Source of the DNA: Spirochaetia bacterium
GTDB lineage: Bacteria > Spirochaetota > Spirochaetia > SZUA-6 > Bin103
DNA length: 64,000 nt
Assembly (NCBI GenBank): GCA_965203905.1
Contig: CBDBDQ010000005.1
Location: 2,016,001 to 2,080,000 of the forward strand
Direction of reading: 5' to 3'
The notes beneath the pieces are model-generated. The model saw nothing but the letters and a program-made list of their open reading frames with translations. It made no database searches and was not told where the DNA came from. The position numbers and the translations under genes are program-made. Positions 16,358-53,777 of this stretch are shown in pieces (position 1 is the stretch's first letter; every line of letters starts with the position of its first letter).

Positions 16358-18145
16358 CTACTTTATGAACAGCCGGTCGGCGAGCCCCCTCATACCGTAG
16401 CCGTGGAGCGGGTGCGGCTTGATGTTGCCGATCGTGTTGCGGACGGCGGTCATCGACGCCGGCGCGAAGGTGTACGCCCACGGCACTTCCTCGATCCACA
16501 GCTCCTGCAGCTTGCGGTAGCCGCGGATGCGCTGCTCCTCGTCGGTGGTCAGGTTGGCCTCGTCCCAGGCAGCGTCCACCGCCGCCTCCCAGTCGCGGCG
16601 CGGCGACTCCTGGTTGGGCTCGATCATGTGCAGGGAGCCGCGCGACGGGTACACGTTGGCGCCGCCCACCGGATCCACCGAGCCGGTCAGGCCGATCAGG
16701 ATCATCTGCCAGTCGTAGGAGGCGACCAGACGGGTGACCAGCTCGTTGAACGCTTCCGGCTTGAAGGTGACGTCGACCCCTACCGCCTTCGCCTCCTGGC
16801 TGAACAGCTCGCCGATCTGCTCGCGCACGTCGTTGCCGGAGTTGGTGTTCAGGATCAGCTCGATCTTGTTGCCGTCCGGGTCCTCGCGCACGCCGTCGCC
16901 GTCGCGGTCGGTGTAGCCGATCGCGTCGAGCAGCTCCTTGGCGCTCTGCGGGTCGTACTTGAAGGCGGCGTCGGCGGCGCCCTCCCAGTAGTAGGGGGAC
17001 ACGGTCCACACGAACGAGTATTGCGGGTAGCCGAAGCCGAAGGCGATGTTGTTGATGATGGTCTGGCGGTCGATCAGGTGCGCCATCGCCTGGCGGAACG
17101 ACTTGTTGGACAGCCAGGTGAGCGCCGGCGGCTCGATCCCGCCGTCCTCCTCGCCCTCGATCGGGTTCTGGTTGAAGGTGATGAACTGGGTGCTGGAGGC
17201 GGGGCCGACGTTGTAGATCAGGAAGTTGTCGGACTCCTGCCTGTCGACCAGGGCGCCGTAGTCCTTGCCGCGCAGCCCGAAGGCGTCGCTCTCACCGGCG
17301 ATGAAGCGGGCCAGGCCGGTTTCGAGATCCTCGACGAACTCGATCACGAACTCGTCCAGGTAGGGAAGCTGCTGCCCCCACTCGTCCTGCTCGTAGTAGT
17401 TGGGGTTGGGCACCATCACCACCCGCTCGCTCGGCACGTACTCGCCGATCAGGAACGGGCCGTTGCCGACGATGGTGCTCACGTCGGTGTCCACGCCCCA
17501 GAACGAGTTGACCGCGGCGGCACCCTCCGCCTCGATCAGCGGCTCGAAGATGTGGCGCGGCATCGGCCCGATCGAGGCGATCTCGAAGATGCCGGCGTAC
17601 ACCGACGGCAGCACGACGCGGTAGGTCAGGTCGTCGATCAGCTCGAACTCCGCGAGCTCGCCGCCGACGTTCAGGGCGTCGCGGGTGCTGGTCTCCACCG
17701 CTTCGTTCTTGTAGATCTCGTTGACGCTCCACACGACCTCGTCCGCGGTGATAGGGTCGCCGTCGGACCACACCAGGCCGCTGCGCAGGTGGAGCGTTAT
17801 CGTCTTCTGGTCCTCGGAGATCTCCCAGCGCTCGGCCAGGCCCGGCTCCCACTCCAGGGTGAGCTGGCTGCGCCGCACCACGCCGGCGAACATGCGATCG
17901 GTGATGTCGGTGGTCGAGGTCTCCTTGGCGACCACCGGGTTGAAGGTCTTGGCGTCGGAGATGTTGTTCACCACGAACCGGCCGCCGTGGCGGCCGCGCT
18001 CCCATGCGGAGTGATCGACCGGCTCCAGCATGTCGATCGGGCTCATCTCCTCCGCTTCGGCCAGCGGTTCGATCTCCACCTCGGGGCCGGCCCAGGCGCC
18101 AATGGCGGCAACGCCGGCAATCAGAACGGCGACGACTTTCTTCAT
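16358..18145 (-). CDS. ABC transporter substrate-binding protein, family 5
   Basis: Signal peptide MKKVVAVLIAGVAAIGAWA, PGLAERW, WSDGDPITADEV, VGNGPF; GGAGG RBS. Confidence 0.95.
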   Translation of the reverse strand: MKKVVAVLIAGVAAIGAWAGPEVEIEPLAEAEEMSPIDMLEPVDHSAWERGRHGGRFVVNNISDAKTFNPVVAKETSTTDITDRMFAGVVRRSQLTLEWEPGLAERWEISEDQKTITLHLRSGLVWSDGDPITADEVVWSVNEIYKNEAVETSTRDALNVGGELAEFELIDDLTYRVVLPSVYAGIFEIASIGPMPRHIFEPLIEAEGAAAVNSFWGVDTDVSTIVGNGPFLIGEYVPSERVVMVPNPNYYEQDEWGQQLPYLDEFVIEFVEDLETGLARFIAGESDAFGLRGKDYGALVDRQESDNFLIYNVGPASSTQFITFNQNPIEGEEDGGIEPPALTWLSNKSFRQAMAHLIDRQTIINNIAFGFGYPQYSFVWTVSPYYWEGAADAAFKYDPQSAKELLDAIGYTDRDGDGVREDPDGNKIELILNTNSGNDVREQIGELFSQEAKAVGVDVTFKPEAFNELVTRLVASYDWQMILIGLTGSVDPVGGANVYPSRGSLHMIEPNQESPRRDWEAAVDAAWDEANLTTDEEQRIRGYRKLQELWIEEVPWAYTFAPASMTAVRNTIGNIKPHPLHGYGMRGLADRLFIK

Positions 18146-18287
18146 GGGAACCTCCAACGAACGTGAGTGTCCCGTAATGGTACCGCATGCCTGTTGCGCT
18201 GTCTTGCTTGTGCGCGCAATCGCGTAATCAGTTCGTTTCGAAACGGCCCGTCATTGACGTACCTGCTGGGGACGGTACCTTCACTCC

Positions 18288-19382
18288 ATGAGCCAGCACG
18301 GTCACTCCGTGACACGGAAGACTACAAGAACCGCGCAAGGAGTACACGGTGGCCGCCATGTTCGGATCAGCACATCGGTCAGGGACCTGATCACCGGCGC
18401 GGTGGCGTGTGTGGTCCTGGTCTATTTCTTTGCCCGTATCGAGCTGGTCGAACTGGTTTTCGACTGGACCCGGCAGCATGAAGACTGGGATCTCGACGAG
18501 ATCCTCGCCGGCGTGCCCGCGCTGGCCGTGGTGGCTGCCTGGTTTGCGGCTCGGCGGCGCCGCGAGGCGCTACGGCTGAGCGTCCACCTGGAGCATAACG
18601 TGGCCCAACTCCAGGAGGAGGTTCGCCGGCGCCGCGAGTTGCAGGAGCAGCTCCGCGAAGCGTACAAGGTTGCCGCCGTGGGCACCGTCGCCGGCGGCCT
18701 CGCGCACGAGCTGAACGACGTCCTGCAACCGATCGTCACGCTGTCGCAACTCCACGCCGAGCGGCCGGAGACTCCCGCAGAGGTGCGTAGCGGCATGCGG
18801 CACATCCAGGACGCTGCCGAACGGGGACGTGAAATCGTCAAGCATTCGCTCTCCTTCACCACCGGCGGAACGCGCGACACCGAGCAGGTGGTCCCCGCCC
18901 GCTGGCTTGCCGGCTTCGTGGCGCGGGCCCGAAAGCAGGCCGGCGAGGTGACGATCGCCACCCGGTTCGGTACCGACGCGGGTTCGGTGCGGGTGAATTC
19001 CGGCGAGCTGGAGCACGTCATGGACAACCTGCTCCGCAATGCCGTCGAGGCGATGCAGCAGCGTGGGACCGTAACCGTCGTCCTCGACACCTGCACCCTG
19101 AACGCCCAAGCCGCGCTCGCGCAGGGGCTGACGGTCGGCGAGTTCTTTCGAATAGACGTGACCGACGAGGGTCCCGGCATGGCCGACGAAGTGCGGCGCC
19201 ACGTATTCGATCCGTTCTTTACCACCAAGGGTGGTGCCACCAAGGGCGGCGGCGACGGAACGGGGCTGGGGCTCGCCGTCGTGTATCGGCTGGTGCGCGG
19301 CTGGGAGGGCAACATCTCCGTGCACTCCGAGCCCGGCGCCGGCGCCACCTTCAGCGTCCTGATTCCCCGGCTTGGCGCGTAG
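18288..19382 (+). CDS. Membrane-bound sensor histidine kinase
   Basis: Two TM segments, AHELND H-box, NLLRNA, DEGPGM, FDPFFTTK, GTGLGL; TTGACG-16-TACCTT 6 nt before the ATG. Confidence 0.92.
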   Translation: MSQHGHSVTRKTTRTAQGVHGGRHVRISTSVRDLITGAVACVVLVYFFARIELVELVFDWTRQHEDWDLDEILAGVPALAVVAAWFAARRRREALRLSVHLEHNVAQLQEEVRRRRELQEQLREAYKVAAVGTVAGGLAHELNDVLQPIVTLSQLHAERPETPAEVRSGMRHIQDAAERGREIVKHSLSFTTGGTRDTEQVVPARWLAGFVARARKQAGEVTIATRFGTDAGSVRVNSGELEHVMDNLLRNAVEAMQQRGTVTVVLDTCTLNAQAALAQGLTVGEFFRIDVTDEGPGMADEVRRHVFDPFFTTKGGATKGGGDGTGLGLAVVYRLVRGWEGNISVHSEPGAGATFSVLIPRLGA

Positions 19383-19387
19383 CAGCC

Positions 19388-19759
19388 GTGGCGACGGTTC
19401 TCGTGGCTGACGATGCGGCCGCGGTACGCTACGCCCTGAGCGCGCTGTTGCGGGGCGCCGGCTACCGGGTGATCGAAGCGGACGGCGGCGTGGCGGCCGT
19501 GCGTGCCGCGGCGACCGCGATGCCGGACCTCGTCGTGGCCGACCTGCACCTGCCGGGCCTGCCGGCCGAACGGCTCATCGAGCAGCTGAAGGCAACGTGT
19601 CCCGGCACCAGGTTCATCGGGCTGTCCGGCGGCGGCATGCACCAGGACCCCGAATCGGCGCTGCGCCTGGCCACCGCCGCCGGCGCCGATGGCGCCCTGC
19701 AGAAACCGGTCTCGAACGACTCCCTGCTGGCCGAGGTGCGAGCCCTGCTGAAACGCTGA
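19388..19759 (+). CDS. Single-domain response regulator (CheY-like)
   Basis: VLVADD, VVADLHLPG, LQKP; adjacent to the kinase. Confidence 0.9.
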   Translation: MATVLVADDAAAVRYALSALLRGAGYRVIEADGGVAAVRAAATAMPDLVVADLHLPGLPAERLIEQLKATCPGTRFIGLSGGGMHQDPESALRLATAAGADGALQKPVSNDSLLAEVRALLKR

Positions 19760-27283: not shown

Positions 27284-28087
27284 CTACAGGCGGTCCTCGG
27301 CGCGGTCGGCGGGTTCGAAGCCCAGCACGGCGCGCGTGTGCTCGGCGTCCAGCCAGCGGTAGCGGTTGCCAGACACGGCATAGAAGATGTCGAAGCGCAT
27401 TTCGGGCGGCGCGTTTACCGCCAGCTCGGCCACGGTCGCGACGTCGCGCTGGCTGCACCAGAGCGCCGAGCCGGCCGCGCCCTGAGGGGCGTCCGCCTTG
27501 TTCACGCCGCCGATGCGCAGGCACAGGCACGACAGGCCGTGGCCGTCGGCGTAGGCACGGCACAGGCCCTCGCCCCACACCTTGCTCGCCGAGTAGGGCT
27601 CGGTGGGGCGTACCGCATCGCGGTGGGTCACTTGGTGGAAGTCGGCGGGCACGGCGTCGAAGCGCGCCTCGCGGATCGCCTTGTAGGGCTCATCGAACTG
27701 GTAGCCCCAGTCGGTCATCACCGTGCTGGCGTAGACGATGCGCCGCACCCCCTGGCTCCGGCACGCCTCCAGCACGTTGTATCCGCCCACCACGTTGCTG
27801 TGCACGATGGCCGCGAACGGCGCCGATGGATCGGGCACCGCACCCATGTGCACCACCACCTCGGCTCCCGCGAACGCCTGCTCCACGGCCGCCAGGTCGC
27901 CCAGGTCGGCGCGCGCGTAGCGCTCCGGCGGGCAACTGAGAGGCTTCTCCGTGGCCACCCGCTCCGACCGCTCGTAACGCCGGCTGCTCCCGGTCACCTC
28001 GTAGCGCTCCGGCTGCGCCGCCAGGTGCGCGTACACCACGTCTCCGATCAACCCGGTCACTCCGGTCACGTGTACCTTCAACGGCAT
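27284..28087 (-). CDS. NAD-dependent epimerase/dehydratase (uronate dehydrogenase-like)
   Basis: VTGVTGLIG, YSASK, LRIG. Confidence 0.88.
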   Translation of the reverse strand: MPLKVHVTGVTGLIGDVVYAHLAAQPERYEVTGSSRRYERSERVATEKPLSCPPERYARADLGDLAAVEQAFAGAEVVVHMGAVPDPSAPFAAIVHSNVVGGYNVLEACRSQGVRRIVYASTVMTDWGYQFDEPYKAIREARFDAVPADFHQVTHRDAVRPTEPYSASKVWGEGLCRAYADGHGLSCLCLRIGGVNKADAPQGAAGSALWCSQRDVATVAELAVNAPPEMRFDIFYAVSGNRYRWLDAEHTRAVLGFEPADRAEDRL

Positions 28088-28226
28088 GCTCGTCGGTCAA
28101 CCTCCTGCACCGTCCGATTATACCCGGGAATGCCCGGAACGGTTGGGGCGCGGCCCAGGCCCGCCAAGCCCGGCGCAGGCGTTGCGGCACTCAGCGAGGC
28201 AGCTCTGCCAGCAATTGCCCAATTTG

Positions 28227-28465
28227 GGTAGTGGGTTTGAATTCCCCGCCTCTTGTGCAGGCCCAGCGGCCCTGGCTTGGGCTTCAGCTATAGATCACCT
28301 CGTAGGCCGTCCAATGCCGGCCGGCAACGCCAGCCGCCACGTCGCCAGCGGTTCGGCGAACTTTTTTCACCCTTTCGGGGTCAGTCGTAGGTGAGAATAA
28401 GAGGTGAGATTGACCTTTTTCCAAAACCTGCCACGATGTGTCGTGATAGTGGCTGACCCACTACC
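28227..28465. mobile_element. MITE (239 bp, non-autonomous)
   Basis: Perfect 10-bp terminal inverted repeats GGTAGTGGGT / ACCCACTACC flanked by 8-bp direct repeat CCAATTTG (28219-28226 and 28466-28473); no transposase. Confidence 0.85.
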
Positions 28466-28477
28466 CCAATTTGCTCG

Positions 28478-28760
28478 TCAGTGGATCTCGTCGTCGGCGC
28501 CGTCGGCTGCTACCGCCACGTCGCCCTGCAGGGTGATGGGCGTGGGGTGGCGGGAAGCACACAGATAGGATAGGCGGTGTCCTGGCCGTCACCATGTGGC
28601 CTATCGCGGTCTCGGCGGCCAAGTACTGCTCTGTCGCGGCGGGCTGCCGGCCCTCGGTCGCGTCGAGCCGCCGCCACCAGCTCCGGGGTGAGCTCGGTGG
28701 GCGGGGAGCCCGGGCACGCAGGTCACGTGTACCTTCCATGGCATGCTGGTCCAAACCTCC
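28478..28760 (-). pseudogene. Chimeric remnant: epimerase 5' end joined to SDR 3' end
   Basis: 28721-28760 matches 28064-28105 (RBS + MP[W/L]KVHVT); 28478-28728 matches 29791-30044 (EQYLAAETAIGHMVTA vs EQDLAAETAIGRMVTA); junction at shared GGTCACGT. Confidence 0.8.
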
Positions 28761-28810
28761 GGATTCGTTGAAGCGTGGCGCCGGTCCCGGCTTCGGTGCT
28801 ATCTTCGGGG

Positions 28811-28921
28811 ATGAGTCAGCACGGTCACACCGTGACACGCGAGACGATGCAGATCGATACACGGGCATCGCCTGCGGGCCCGGTATCCTCGGACCAAGGG
28901 TCACGGTGTCGGCTGCAGTAG
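28811..28921 (+). other. 36-codon ORF carrying the repeated MSQHGH.VT..T module
   Basis: MSQHGHTVTRETMQIDTRASPAGP...; TGnTATCTT 5 nt upstream; similar to the 5' ends of 18288 and 53079. Confidence 0.5.
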
Positions 28922-28964
28922 GGCGTAAGAGTGCGGTTCGCATGAAACGCCCATTGGGGAGACG

Positions 28965-29258
28965 ATGACACAACAGCAGTCATTCGAGAAGGTCAAGGAG
29001 ATCGTAAAGGAAGACCTCGAGGGGCACTTCAAGGACAAATTCGTGTTTGATCCGATCGTCGTAGAGCCTGCGGTGGACGAATTCGGAGATGGTACGGGCG
29101 AGACTTACCTCAATGTCCTGATCGTCTTTGACGGCAATCAAGACGATCTCGATCCGGAGTGGACCTCGGGGTTGATCGGGCGTGTATCCGACAAACTGAT
29201 CGCCGCGGACATCCAGGAATTTCCGTGTCCTTCCTTTATCAAGAAGTCGGAGTGGTAG
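28965..29258 (+). CDS. MNT-like small acidic protein, putative antitoxin partner of HEPN
   Basis: 97 aa, predicted alpha-beta-beta-alpha-beta pattern, GGGGAG RBS, immediately upstream of the HEPN gene; no canonical GS..DxD motif. Confidence 0.65.
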   Translation: MTQQQSFEKVKEIVKEDLEGHFKDKFVFDPIVVEPAVDEFGDGTGETYLNVLIVFDGNQDDLDPEWTSGLIGRVSDKLIAADIQEFPCPSFIKKSEW

Positions 29259-29289
29259 TCCAGAATCGTCTGACCTCGGATATCGAGCG

Positions 29290-29778
29290 TTGACGGCGAC
29301 GGACTACATCGCCACCGCTCGGGACTTGGCAGGTGCCAATAGCGCGGCGAAACCACGGGAAACCAACTTGCGGCGCGCGGTCAGCACCACTTACTACGCG
29401 ATATTTCACTGTATGGCAGCGTTTGGAGCTGATCTGCTCGCGGGAGACTTGACTGCCGATCGCAACAACTCAGCGTGGCGTCAAGCCTACCGAGCGCTGG
29501 ACCACGGAAACGCGAAGACGCGATGCGAGAGTGCCGAGATTGCACGATTCCCCGTGGCCATTCGGAATCTCGCCAAGTCTTTCATCGCCCTGCAGAAGAA
29601 ACGGCATTATGCTGACTACGACCCGGCGACAACTTACAATGGTAAGTCGATTTCCAAATCGGCGGTCATTCAAGACATCCGTAACGCTGAGACTGTCATC
29701 AGGCACGTTGGAAGTGTTTCCAAGAGGGATCTGCGCGCTTTCGCTATCTTCGTGTTACTGAAGCACAGAAAGGACTGA
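29290..29778 (+). CDS. HEPN-domain protein (UPF0332-like)
   Basis: LRRAVSTTYYAIFH, RALDH, LQKKRHYADYDP. Confidence 0.82.
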   Translation: MTATDYIATARDLAGANSAAKPRETNLRRAVSTTYYAIFHCMAAFGADLLAGDLTADRNNSAWRQAYRALDHGNAKTRCESAEIARFPVAIRNLAKSFIALQKKRHYADYDPATTYNGKSISKSAVIQDIRNAETVIRHVGSVSKRDLRAFAIFVLLKHRKD

Positions 29779-29790
29779 TTCGGGCGTGGT

Positions 29791-30594
29791 TTAGTAGCGG
29801 ATCTCGCTGGCGGCGCCGCCGGCGGCTACCACCACGTCACCCTGCAGGGCGACGGAGCGCGGGGAGGCGAGGAAACATACCAGCCAGGCGACATCCTGGG
29901 CGGTCACCATGCGCCCGATCGCGGTTTCCGCGGCCAGGTCCTGCTCGATCTCCGCGTCCGGCCGACTCTCCGCTGCCGCGCGCCGGGCTACCAGTTCCGG
30001 GGTGAGCTCGGTGCGCGTGGAGCCGGGGTGAACGCAGGTCACGTTGATGCCGTAGGGCCCCAGCTCGGTGGCGAGATTCCTCGTGAGCGCCACCACGCCG
30101 GCGTTGCGGATGCTGCCGATGATGGAGCCCGCGCGCCGCGCCGCCAGGCCGGCGACGTTGATGATGCGCCCCCAGCCGCGCTGTCGCATGAACCGGGCGG
30201 CTTCCCGCGCACAGCGCAGGTAGCCCAGCACCTTCACGTCCAGCGCCTGCTCGAACTGGTCGGCGGTCAGGTCCTCCAGCCCCGGGTTGGGCGCCAGCCA
30301 CGCCACCGGGGCCGCGCAGTTGACCAGTATGTCGACGCCGCCCAGCTCCTCCGCGGCGCGCTGCATCAAGGCGCGCACCGAGGCATCGTCGGTGGTGTCC
30401 GCCGGCACCGCTACGACCCTGTGGTGGCGCGAGGCTCCGCCCAATTGCGTCGCGGCCTGCTCCAGCGGCTCGCGCCCGCGCGCGGCGATCACCACCGCCA
30501 CTCCGGCCCCTGCCAACTCGGCAGCCACGGCCCGTCCGATGCCGCGGCTGCCCCCGGTCACCACTGCCGTACGCCCCCGCAATTCCAGATCCAT
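29791..30594 (-). CDS. SDR-family oxidoreductase
   Basis: VTGGSRGIG, DILVNCA, GRIINV, VHPG; GGAGGAG RBS. Confidence 0.92.
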   Translation of the reverse strand: MDLELRGRTAVVTGGSRGIGRAVAAELAGAGVAVVIAARGREPLEQAATQLGGASRHHRVVAVPADTTDDASVRALMQRAAEELGGVDILVNCAAPVAWLAPNPGLEDLTADQFEQALDVKVLGYLRCAREAARFMRQRGWGRIINVAGLAARRAGSIIGSIRNAGVVALTRNLATELGPYGINVTCVHPGSTRTELTPELVARRAAAESRPDAEIEQDLAAETAIGRMVTAQDVAWLVCFLASPRSVALQGDVVVAAGGAASEIRY

Positions 30595-30730
30595 CCCGAC
30601 TCCTCCCGTGCACACGGCCCGTGCCGTGCTCGCCGGGAGGTTACCAGCCGTGGACGGCCATTCGCCACCCGCAGGACCCGTCTGGTGCCGGGGATTTGAG
30701 ACCGGCGCAAAGACGGGTTAGGGTGACGCA

Positions 30731-32257
30731 ATGGCCACACGCAGGCTGCCGCTCGGCATCCAGAACTTCCGCGAGCTGCGCGAGCTGGACTGCTACTACG
30801 TGGACAAGACCGCCTACGTCAAACGGCTGCTGGACCAGGGCAAGTACTACTTCCTGTCGCGCCCGCGGCGGTTCGGGAAGAGCCTGTTCCTGGACACGCT
30901 GAAGGAGCTGTTCGAGGGCAGCGAGGAGCTGTTCGCGGGCTTGTACATCCACGAGCGCTGGACCTGGTCGGATCGGCATCCGGTGGTGCGGCTGAGCTTC
31001 GGCGGCCGCCACTTCGCGGCGCCCGGCGATCTGGGCGCCAACCTGGCGGCGCAGTTGGATGACATCGAAGTCGAGGCGGGCGTGAGTCCCCGCTACCAGA
31101 CTGCGCCGGAGCGGTTCGGATACCTGATCCGGACCCTGCACCGGCAAACCGGGCAGCGGGTGGTGGTGCTGGTCGACGAGTACGACAAGCCGATCCTGGA
31201 CGCGCTGGAGAATCAGGAATTGGCGGGCGCCAACCGCGACTTCCTGCGCGGCCTGTACGGGGTGATCAAGGACAGCGACGCGCACGTGCGGTTCGCGTTC
31301 CTCACCGGCATCAGCAAGTTCTCCAAGGTGAGTCTGACCGACATCACGCTGGACCTGCGCTACTCGTCGATCTGCGGCTACACGGAACATGACCTGGACA
31401 CGGTGTTCGGTCCGGAACTGGCCGGACTGGACAGGGACCAGGTGCGGGAGTGGTACAACGGCTATCGCTGGCGCGGCGACGAGAGGGTGTACAACCCCTA
31501 CGACGTGCTGCTGCTGCTCGACAGCCGCGAATTCGCGGCCCATTGGTTCGAGACCGGGACGCCGGCGTTCCTGGTCAAAAAGCTGTTCGAGCGCCGGGTG
31601 TCGTCGGTGTCACTCGACGAGATGGTGAGCACGGAGAGACTGCTGTCGGCGTTCGACGTGGAGCACGTCGGCACGGAGGCGCTGTTGTTCCAGACCGGCT
31701 ACCTGACGATCACCGGAGAGGAACGGCTGGGAGGCAAGACGCTGTATCGGCTTGGCTATCCGAACCGGGAGGTGCGCGAGAGCCTGAACGAACAACTGCT
31801 GCTGCACCTGGTGCAGGATACCGACCGGCAAACGGCGAACAGCGTGCGCCTGGCGCGGCTGCTGGAGGCGCACGACTGCGCCGGGCTGAAGGAGCTGTTC
31901 CACGCGTTCTACGCGAGCATCCCGTATCAATGGTACACGAACAACGACATTGCCGAGTACGAGGGCTTCTATGCCAGCGTGTTCTACTCCTACTTCGCGG
32001 CGCTGGGGTACGAGATCGCGGTGGAAGAGTCGAGCAGCCACGGGCGGCTGGACATGGCGGTGCGAGCGTACGGCCACGTGTACCTGTTCGAGTTCAAGGT
32101 GGCGGAGATGGCGCCGCCGGGGTCGGCGCTGGCCCAGTTGCAGGAGCGGGAGTACGCGGCGAAGTACCGGGGCCAAGGCGAACCGATCCACCTGGTCGGG
32201 GTCGAGTTCAGCCGCACCACGCGCAACATCACGGCATTCGAGACAGCCGACGCCTGA
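30731..32257 (+). CDS. AAA-ATPase-like / PD-(D/E)XK nuclease fusion
   Basis: LPLGIQNF, YYVDKT, SRPRRFGKS, LVDEYDKP, YNPY, FQTGYLTI, YPNREV, GRLDM....YLFEFK. Confidence 0.92.
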   Translation: MATRRLPLGIQNFRELRELDCYYVDKTAYVKRLLDQGKYYFLSRPRRFGKSLFLDTLKELFEGSEELFAGLYIHERWTWSDRHPVVRLSFGGRHFAAPGDLGANLAAQLDDIEVEAGVSPRYQTAPERFGYLIRTLHRQTGQRVVVLVDEYDKPILDALENQELAGANRDFLRGLYGVIKDSDAHVRFAFLTGISKFSKVSLTDITLDLRYSSICGYTEHDLDTVFGPELAGLDRDQVREWYNGYRWRGDERVYNPYDVLLLLDSREFAAHWFETGTPAFLVKKLFERRVSSVSLDEMVSTERLLSAFDVEHVGTEALLFQTGYLTITGEERLGGKTLYRLGYPNREVRESLNEQLLLHLVQDTDRQTANSVRLARLLEAHDCAGLKELFHAFYASIPYQWYTNNDIAEYEGFYASVFYSYFAALGYEIAVEESSSHGRLDMAVRAYGHVYLFEFKVAEMAPPGSALAQLQEREYAAKYRGQGEPIHLVGVEFSRTTRNITAFETADA

Positions 32258-32361
32258 CCTCGCGACCACCGGCGATCGCAGCGCAGGCATCGCAGGTGCC
32301 GGCGCGGTGCGGTGGTGTTGCGGCAGGTGGCGATTCGCGCCATCCTGTGCCGCGAACCGTC

Positions 32362-52770: not shown

Positions 52771-52842
52771 TGGGCGATACTGGGATCGAACCAGTGACTT
52801 CTACCGTGTGAAGGTAGCACTCTACCGCTGAGTTAATCGCCC
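52771..52842 (-). tRNA. tRNA-Val(CAC), CCA not encoded
   Basis: GGGCGATTAACTCAGCGGTAGAGTGCTACCTTCACACGGTAGAAGTCACTGGTTCGATCCCAGTATCGCCCA folds as a cloverleaf; anticodon loop TTCACAC. Confidence 0.97.
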
Positions 52843-53078: not shown

Positions 53079-53777
53079 ATGATGCGCCACGGTCACTCCA
53101 TTACGGCGAAGACCATGACAACCGATGCACCGGCAGCGCCGGCTGGCCGGCTTTTTCGCGTCACGCACGGCAGGTACGGCGCAACCGAGCCAGCTCGCGG
53201 GACCCGTAGCGCAACCCAGATAGAACTGTTCCGCAAGGCGATCCACATGGCGATCGCCGCGGTGCCCACCATCGCCGCTCTGGATGTGCTGGTGGCCGCG
53301 GGCCTGCTCGGCGTGGGCATAATGATCTACATCGCCGCGGAGCAGGCCCGGCTGACCGGGACCCGCGTGGCCGTGATCTCCGACCTGACCCTGCTGGCGC
53401 TGCGGGAGCGGGATGGCCGGGGATTCGTGCTCGGTCCGGTGACGCTCGGGCTCGGTGCCATGCTGGCCCTGCTGTTGTACCCGGAGCCGGCGGCTTCGGT
53501 GGCCATCTATGCCCTCGCCTTCGGAGACAGCGCCGCCGCCCTCGTGGGAACCGCCTTCGGGCGCATCAAGATCCCGTACACGGGCGGCAAGACCCTGGCC
53601 GGCAGTGCGGCCTGCTGTGCGGTGGTGCTGGCGATCACCCTGCGCATGACCGGCGATGTTGCGGCGTCGCTGGCGGTAGCCGTGGCCGCCGCGTTGCTGG
53701 AGGCCGCACCCACCCGCGACTACGACAATCTCATGCTGCCGGTCGGCGCCGGGCTCGTGGCTCACTACGTGTTGTAG
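53079..53777 (+). CDS. SEC59/DGK1/VTE5-type polyprenol/phytol kinase (CTP-transferase-like) membrane protein
   Basis: ELFRKAIH, LAFGDSAAALVG, GGKTLAGS, YDNL; start could be 53079, 53082 or 53115. Confidence 0.8.
   Translation: MMRHGHSITAKTMTTDAPAAPAGRLFRVTHGRYGATEPARGTRSATQIELFRKAIHMAIAAVPTIAALDVLVAAGLLGVGIMIYIAAEQARLTGTRVAVISDLTLLALRERDGRGFVLGPVTLGLGAMLALLLYPEPAASVAIYALAFGDSAAALVGTAFGRIKIPYTGGKTLAGSAACCAVVLAITLRMTGDVAASLAVAVAAALLEAAPTRDYDNLMLPVGAGLVAHYVL

Follow-up and report, generated by a model that had tools for sequence, protein, structure and literature searches.

Three separate open reading frames (ORFs) in a 64,000-nt stretch of Spirochaetia DNA (contig CBDBDQ010000005.1 of assembly GCA_965203905.1, positions 2,016,001 to 2,080,000, hereafter the window) open with nearly the same codons, as exemplified by the histidine kinase gene starting at 18288, and the question raised by this locus is what the common start represents. 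An earlier interpretation made from the letters alone, hereafter the sequence-only reading, had described a portable 12-codon module at the 5′-end of these ORFs, and the three ATG-led stretches are indeed present with the letters given, on the forward strand at 18288, 28811 and 53079. A repeat of ca. 81 nt, dispersed in the genome, has the shared module as its front end, i.e. its conserved 5′ half. With a probability of about 0.8, the stretch belongs to a short, non-autonomous, orientation-specific selfish mobile repeat residing in a genus of uncultured high-G+C Spirochaetia. The repeat was multi-copy and absent at orthologous sites, and in the readable empty alleles its position was immediately 3′ of GAG, most often TGAG.

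Within the window, the 12-mer core had exactly three exact occurrences, and four matches when at most one mismatch was allowed, against an expectation of 1.19 and with 3 of 100 shuffles reaching four. Comparison with a profile built from the genome-wide copies returned nhmmer E-values of 2e-20, 2e-18 and 3e-19 for copies 1, 2 and 3, respectively, which excludes chance similarity. The likeness did not end after 12 codons, as had been claimed, and spanned ca. 81 nt up to a conserved end of ...TTTCGGACCAG, and the proposed extended resemblance of copies 2 and 3 beyond the core was borne out, these two copies sharing one sub-type (B) of the repeat. Upstream of the ATG codons, the aligned flanks of the three copies were unrelated, and the “-10-like hexamers” that had been pointed out in front of the starts are situated in these unconserved flanks, outside the repeat; in a consensus promoter scan, copies 1 and 2 had no promoter-like site upstream, whereas two such sites were called near copy 3. 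That the module is portable and reused on unrelated genes holds true in so far as ca. 70 copies were located beside unrelated neighbours, but the portable unit is the whole 81-nt DNA repeat.

The genome scan proposed in the sequence-only reading produced many further copies in the genome of the window (designated G000; 7.99 Mb in 5 contigs, 66% G+C, with C5 as the contig of the loci listed below). A loose version of the core had 22 matches in G000, which upon alignment had ca. 86 nt in common; this shared part opens with (A)TGAG-TCAGCACGG and closes with TTTCGGACCAG, and the DNA to either side of it was unrelated. The nhmmer profile search of the same genome returned 129 hits with E-value ≤10, among them 70 with E-value <1e-4. 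The unit begins with TCAGCACGG and finishes with GGACCAG, and its typical length is 81 nt, corresponding to 27 codons; the length was exactly 81 nt (TCAG to CCAG) in 22 of the 40 full copies, within a range of 61–83 nt. Identity to the consensus was up to 98%, and 95% for the best pair of copies. The ends of the repeat were conserved and the middle was variable, and two sub-types that differ mid-unit were distinguished, copy 1 being of type A and copies 2 and 3 of type B. Head-to-tail tandems were observed, e.g. at C5:53262-53429, 3948110-3948287 and 6866850-6867007. In the six copies examined for terminal inverted repeats, no inverted pair joining the ends was detected, only local or chance pairs. 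With MITEs, i.e. miniature inverted-repeat transposable elements, the family shares its multiple copies, small size, non-coding content and presence or absence between relatives.

The kinase locus gave a direct comparison of filled and empty site. The histidine kinase ORF with a HATPase_c domain (18288..19382, forward strand) is followed by a response-regulator gene (19388-19759), and three orthologues were found in the relatives G004, G006 and G007, with 79–84% protein identity, aligned from query residue 19–21 onwards. These orthologues lack the extension, an outcome that the sequence-only reading had listed as refuting, and have the same ATGAG start. All of the DNA in front of the start, TTGACG...TACC(A/T)T among it, could be aligned between these orthologues and the window as far as ATGAG, and the empty alleles then continued as ATGAG|CACATCGG, with the protein reading M-S-T-S-A-R-D-L.... 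The window has 78 nt between ATGAG and the orthologous continuation, which implies that ATG and the following AG are the kinase's own, and that the HGHSVTRKT codons are derived from roughly the first 30 bases of the repeat. Accordingly delimited by the filled/empty alignment, copy 1 is a 78-nt unit of sub-type A with a 3-nt deletion at 18293..18370 (forward strand), with its insertion point directly after the target pentamer ATGAG, i.e. the kinase start codon plus two bases, at 18288..18292 (forward strand). Copy 1 is in frame in codon 2 of the kinase, its frame is open into a 364-codon ORF with a positive coding score, and it places 26 extra residues before the first membrane helix of the kinase. 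The kinase's own upstream region (18254..18287, forward strand) lies outside the repeat and is conserved in the orthologues of G004, G006 and G007; it contains TTGACG at 18254-18259, a 16-nt spacer, TACCTT at 18276-18281 and 6 nt to the ATG. This TTGACG-16 nt-TACCTT arrangement scored too low to be called by the consensus promoter scan; as it is conserved in orthologues without the repeat, it is to be assigned to the kinase rather than to the module.

Further empty alleles were obtained from 80 loci around copies in the relatives, the flanks of which were mapped onto G000. Both flanks mapped within 400 nt for 45 of the 80 loci, and 20 of these were read, representing 17 distinct sites; together with the kinase and three sites of G000, 21 sites were compared. 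The empty-allele junction was GAG at 11 of the 21 (four ATGAG, two CTGAG, one GTGAG, two AGGAG, one TGGAG and one TCGAG), AAG just after a stop codon at three, and ATGAT at one, and the remaining six were too diverged or rearranged. One clear case besides the kinase was a 927-codon ORF at C5:3324518, for which G007 had an allele without the repeat (ATGAG|ACCGG), preceded by a Shine-Dalgarno motif. The same preference was seen in the 5′ flanks of filled sites, with GAG in 34 of 47 copies in G000 (TGAG in 23 of 47) and in 71 of 78 copies in the relatives, where TGAG accounted for 50 of 78 (ATGAG 22, GTGAG 17, CTGAG 8, TTGAG 3). AG was present at both junctions, as the 5′ flank is GAG and the unit end is CAG, with only 2 nt in common.

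Judged by crude gene calls of our own, 38 copies between co-directional genes were co-oriented with the genes and eight were opposite, and 19 copies were located in divergent and five in convergent gaps. Many copies resided in transporter operons, often beside ABC-transporter genes and 3–90 nt from the neighbouring genes, and the stop codon TGA of the upstream gene was often found inside the TGAG flank of the copy. The consensus was stop-free in frame 1 (M-S-Q-H-G-H-S-V-T-R-K-T-M-K-T...) and in frame 3 (E-S-A-R-S-L-R-D-T-E-D...), with stops in frame 2. In 8–12 copies of G000, frame 1 ran without a stop from the start codon next to the copy into a long ORF, the coding score of which was positive. 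Two copies, L112 in G007 and L118 in G001, were situated within a gene with frame 3 open across the copy, and the G000 orthologue had no copy. An in-frame insertion with an open frame, as known from Rickettsia palindromic elements (RPEs), was found for the kinase, C5:3324518, L112 and L118. Among ca. 25 unfused copies, the frame-1 stop overlapped the start of the next gene in three (TAATG at C5:4003855, GTGA at 5251514 and ATGGTGA at 4987019), a number too small for coupling to be postulated as a general device.

On the basis of these observations, a course of events can be suggested. On the coding strand, ATGAG or GTGAG (a start codon followed by AG), TGAG (a stop codon followed by G) and the Shine-Dalgarno-like AGGAG each contain the GAG target, and a strand-specific target of this kind, combined with loss of harmful insertions, would lead to placement at gene boundaries in the same direction as the genes. 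The unit end CCAG resembles the target, and a next copy landing there would generate head-to-tail arrays. When a copy lands after the ATGAG of a gene, the start codon would be kept and the unit read through, with addition of ca. 26–27 residues (MS+QHGHSVTRKT...), as in the kinase; this read-through would follow from a unit length of 27 codons and the lack of stops in two forward frames. Copies within genes would be read in the other open frame (E-S-A-R-S-L-R-D...). Landing after ATGAG and subsequent read-through would make the module a by-product of selfish DNA insertion instead of a tag under selection. Insertion in one orientation at a short and specific target, AG at either junction and ends without inverted repeats would point to site-specific or single-strand transposition rather than to cut-and-paste by a DDE transposase. 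It is also conceivable, although doubtful, that the family represents a distinct “translation-compatible” class of mobile repeats, which homes to GAG after start and stop codons and Shine-Dalgarno cores, is exactly 27 codons long, lacks inverted ends and is free of stops in two frames, and is moved in trans by an undescribed mechanism, e.g. a single-strand or guide-directed recombinase. If such a class were real, it would colonise gene boundaries and even coding sequence, with the same 26–27 residues written onto unrelated proteins.

Several results weigh against the mobile-repeat interpretation. The orientation counts depend on the crude gene calls mentioned above, and these data do not allow a preference at insertion to be told apart from a preferential survival of copies. 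The target rule is based on 11 clean sites, with 6 of the 21 sites unreadable. No pair of copies was more than 95% identical, and current activity is hence not demonstrated. At C5:4840403 (locus L139), TCATG was present on both sides of the copy, which is not accounted for by a simple insertion model, and the site at C5:3821858 (locus L140) was rearranged. In the search for a mobilising gene, the Y1_Tnp domain (PF01797, RAYT/IS200-type) had no matches in the 11 genomes of the genus, while positive-control genomes were matched, and no TnpB-type match was obtained in G000. Insertion sequence (IS) families with 10 (IS110) and six (Y2, IS91-family) matches in G000 were considered as mobilisers and rejected: the five-copy member of IS110 was aligned and its flanks and ends were unrelated to the repeat, the ends of the IS91-like elements were defined and gave no match to the repeat profile (nhmmer), and the presence of neither Y2_Tnp nor IS110 across genomes tracked that of the repeat.

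Whether the common start is a selected feature of the genes has to be weighed against the selfish mobile repeat, and both forms of this idea, an N-terminal tag or leader peptide and a structured 5′ RNA, had been put forward in the sequence-only reading. In the ATCUN (amino-terminal copper- and nickel-binding) motif, a free N-terminus with histidine at position 3 (NH2-X-X-His) binds metal. Gene-fused copies in frame 1 read M-S-Q-H-G-H-S-V-T-R-K-T, and the S-Q-H expected after presumed removal of Met would formally match this pattern by its letters. In the kinase, however, M-S comes from the gene itself (orthologues start MSTS...) and Q-H from the repeat, and close orthologues function without the extension. 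Moreover, variability over 40 copies was 0.16, 0.21 and 0.19 at ATG-frame codon positions 1, 2 and 3, respectively, and such a lack of third-position excess leaves no coding signature in the repeat. Single-base indels were common among the copies, and the indels were not multiples of three; most copies were intergenic or frame-broken, and copies inside genes use a different frame. A selected N-terminal peptide module, be it an ATCUN-type metal-binding tag or a leader, is extremely improbable in the light of these findings.

A cis-acting structured RNA reused on many transcripts, i.e. a riboswitch-like element or a processing or stability site in 5′ untranslated or intercistronic regions, would be in line with copies co-oriented with genes and close upstream of their starts, with a possible local 5-bp hairpin (CACGG-TCACT-CCGTG) in the conserved box, and with the terminator-like pattern fitted by the 3′ part of copy 3. 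RNAalifold on 40 copies nevertheless returned practically no consensus fold (-1.1 kcal/mol on the plus strand, 0.0 on the minus strand), folding z-scores of nine copies ranged from +0.83 to -1.66 and were no better than shuffles, and three candidate helices inspected in 113 distinct copies from several genomes had 0–1 compensatory changes and 4–23 broken pairs per position. The Rfam search at the gathering threshold yielded only tRNA in the window, and nothing for 20 copies at E-value ≤1. Together with tandem arrays, intragenic copies and presence or absence between species, which suit mobile DNA better, these results make a conserved RNA element very unlikely. Capture of a promoter or 5′-end from decayed paralogues of the gene at 53079, which had been offered as the simpler alternative, can be rejected as well, with a practically negligible probability: copies 2 and 3 are alike past the first 12 codons, but this likeness is that of sub-type B in a family of ca. 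70 members beside unrelated genes, the orthologues of the 53079 gene in the two genomes G004 and G006 lack the stretch, and the flanks upstream of the ATG codons are unrelated.

Two other explanations concern the kind of mobile element. The repeat might be a tolerance device in the manner of mycobacterial interspersed repetitive units (MIRUs), bearing its own translation signals with an internal in-frame ATG after a purine-rich GGAAG, which would be compatible with a selfish mobile repeat. Consistent with this, the most conserved block includes GGAAGACC-ATG-AAAA, copies are located between co-directional and often ABC-transporter genes in gaps of 3–90 nt, the frame-1 stop overlaps the next start in three unfused copies, and a 2025 review (PMC12548453) describes the insertion of MIRUs at start codons, with an ORF coupled at a spacing of -4 nt. 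However, the overlap is confined to those 3 of ca. 25 unfused copies, the frame is broken by single-base indels in many copies and conservation is not codon-periodic, and conserved ends with a variable middle suit transposition signals equally well; we therefore regard a translational device of this kind as unlikely. A palindromic element of the repetitive extragenic palindromic (REP)/REPIN type or derived from IS200/IS605, and moved by a Y1 transposase (TnpA, or RAYT, the REP-associated tyrosine transposase), would explain why the unit enters in a single orientation, 3′ of a specific short sequence, and why inverted ends are missing and arrays are head-to-tail, and a small hairpin is present a few bases from the 5′-end. 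Against it stand the absence of Y1_Tnp from the 11 genomes of the genus and of TnpB-type matches from G000, and the lack of an extended palindrome, with no end-to-end inverted pair in six copies. In addition, no replication-strand bias was observed, as 36 of 69 copies were on one strand in relation to an origin at ca. 1.5 Mb and a terminus at ca. 5.8 Mb, placed by GC skew, and leading/lagging-strand preference is thus missing. The Y1-driven palindrome is accordingly highly improbable.

Among known systems, the behaviour of the selfish repeat seems, in our reading, closest to that of MIRUs, and close also to that of RPEs. Supply et al. 1997 is reportedly the source for start-codon insertion of MIRUs with a coupled ORF at -4 nt spacing. 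Like the repeat, MIRUs are short direct repeats of tens of nucleotides without inverted ends, often in tandem, and are located between co-directional genes in the same orientation (here 38 versus 8). The phylum differs, and the comparison is one of described behaviour. Furthermore, MIRUs bring a separate ORF coupled at -4 nt, whereas the repeat enters two bases past the start codon as an in-frame N-terminal extension and is found also inside genes. The part of the 2025 review dealing with MIRUs states that they insert at start codons with little harm to expression and with a coupled ORF (PMC12548453). Rickettsia RPEs are presented in sections of a MITE review (PMC10969869) as selfish repeats positioned in frame within protein-coding genes and translated, and as far as these sections go they resemble the repeat in being small, in frame inside genes and read as extra residues. 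According to the same sections, RPEs are of ca. 150 bp and palindromic, whereas the repeat, of 81 nt and for the most part intergenic, lacks a palindrome and a stable fold and is clearly targeted to GAG. Classical MITEs (e.g. Correia, ERIC/RU, Nezha) are likewise (PMC2759123, PMC10969869) non-coding, multi-copy, shorter than 300 bp, mostly intergenic and sometimes fused to ORFs. Unlike MITEs, the repeat lacks terminal inverted repeats and is strictly polar, its junctions appear to share no more than AG (2 nt) in place of a regular target duplication, and no related full-length IS was found. REPs are characterised in passages of one article (PMC3733652) as G+C-rich palindromes of 20–40 bp with a RAYT partner. 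Like REPs and bacterial interspersed mosaic elements (BIMEs), the repeat is abundant in intercistronic gaps of transporter operons, but it has no palindrome, no stable hairpin and no Y1 gene.

The repeat was restricted in its distribution. BLAST against 31 genomes located it at many places each in 7 of the 10 congeneric genomes besides G000, and at a single place in one of the 8 sister-genus genomes, whereas the 12 genomes from other genera within the order had no match. When one genome per species was scanned for an exact 26-mer, nine loci were obtained in three records, all titled as metagenome-assembled genomes (MAGs) of “Spirochaetia” or “Spirochaetales bacterium”, which indicates uncultured high-G+C spirochaetes as the host lineage. 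A literature search within a limited collection found neither this repeat nor anything similar reported from Spirochaetia. When metagenome contigs from four runs were placed on 17900-18800 of the window, the summed depth rose 5–10 fold over 18272-18333, i.e. the conserved 5′ box, and many contigs diverged into unrelated sequence just before 18286-18290, where loose ends piled up. Contigs leaving after 18322 followed the family consensus and not the kinase copy. Depth and breaks fit a multi-copy repeat with its 5′ edge at the ATG. A few contig joints across the kinase region came from diverged relatives (likeness threshold 85) and were left out of the empty alleles.

For annotation, the family means that ca. 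70 places in G000, and many in its relatives, are prone to false short ORFs, to false or extended starts and to apparent “shared N-terminal motifs”, and recognising the repeat averts these errors. With its readable GAG/TGAG target, strict polarity, lack of inverted ends and length of 27 codons, the family is a case of selfish DNA tolerated at start and stop codons and inside genes, and it offers naturally occurring proteins that either carry or lack the same 26–27 added residues.

The second window copy, of sub-type B and 83 nt, is located at 28816..28898 behind an ATGAG flank at 28811..28815 (both forward strand). The 36-codon frame-1 ORF starting at 28811 had a coding score of -3.0 and no Pfam match, and is probably not a gene. 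The two-gene pair downstream of the copy had no DNA match in five relatives, which leaves copy 2 without an empty allele for comparison, the surrounding island being missing from the relatives. This island, 28081-32332 of the window (4.25 kb), is strain-specific: in G001, G004, G006 and G007 the genes to either side are the same, but the island is missing. It comprises, in addition to copy 2, the lower-G+C gene pair at 28965-29778, and 28480-28728 partially duplicates (249 nt, 76% identity) the SDR gene of 29791-30615 in its 3′ part.

The third copy, also of sub-type B with ca. 81 nt but older and more diverged, is located at 53084..53164, preceded by ATGAT (53079..53083), a degenerate counterpart of the ATGAG flank (both forward strand). 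It is in frame with the downstream 232-codon ORF, with a frame-1 coding score of 88. At the corresponding place, G004 and G006 were without the stretch and G001 held a decayed copy. Pfam gave no match for the 53079 gene, nor for the two genes named “MNT-like/HEPN” or the 36-codon ORF near copy 2, and these names are thus unconfirmed. A tRNA gene at 52771-52842 (minus strand, 66.8 bits) lies ca. 240 nt upstream of copy 3, and is beside the same gene in the relatives.

The IS elements of G000 included an IS110-family element in five identical copies (C5:347637, 2657925, 4980024, 5155462 and 6652926) and four full IS91-like (Y2) elements of ca. 2.6 kb each; both kinds appear to be active in G000, and are unrelated to the repeat. 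A search for a parent element, with the 5′ part followed by the 3′ part of the repeat within 8 kb, returned none except one candidate at C5:6020741-6021690, where two small low-G+C ORFs (ca. 0.7 kb) are situated between a 3′-truncated and a 5′-truncated copy. The orthologous place in G001 and G005 had plain tandem copies, and small gene pairs may use the repeat arrays as landing sites.

At L139, the ATG downstream of the copy does not share the reading frame of the gene, and a start is possible only at the ATG before the repeat or inside it. The gene at L140 is Mur-ligase-like and starts at ATGAG before the repeat copy; G005 has a copy of its own, and in four relatives the place is occupied by a tRNA gene and a different upstream region, which suggests that L140 was rearranged at the repeat. 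At least seven loci in G001 and G005 (L063, L064, L066, L067, L071, L072 and L074) had two tandem copies between two ABC-permease genes. All seven mapped best to one copy-free operon of G000 at C5:946163-947359, and they represent paralogous operons, with the array retained in each of them, or else the outcome of gene conversion.

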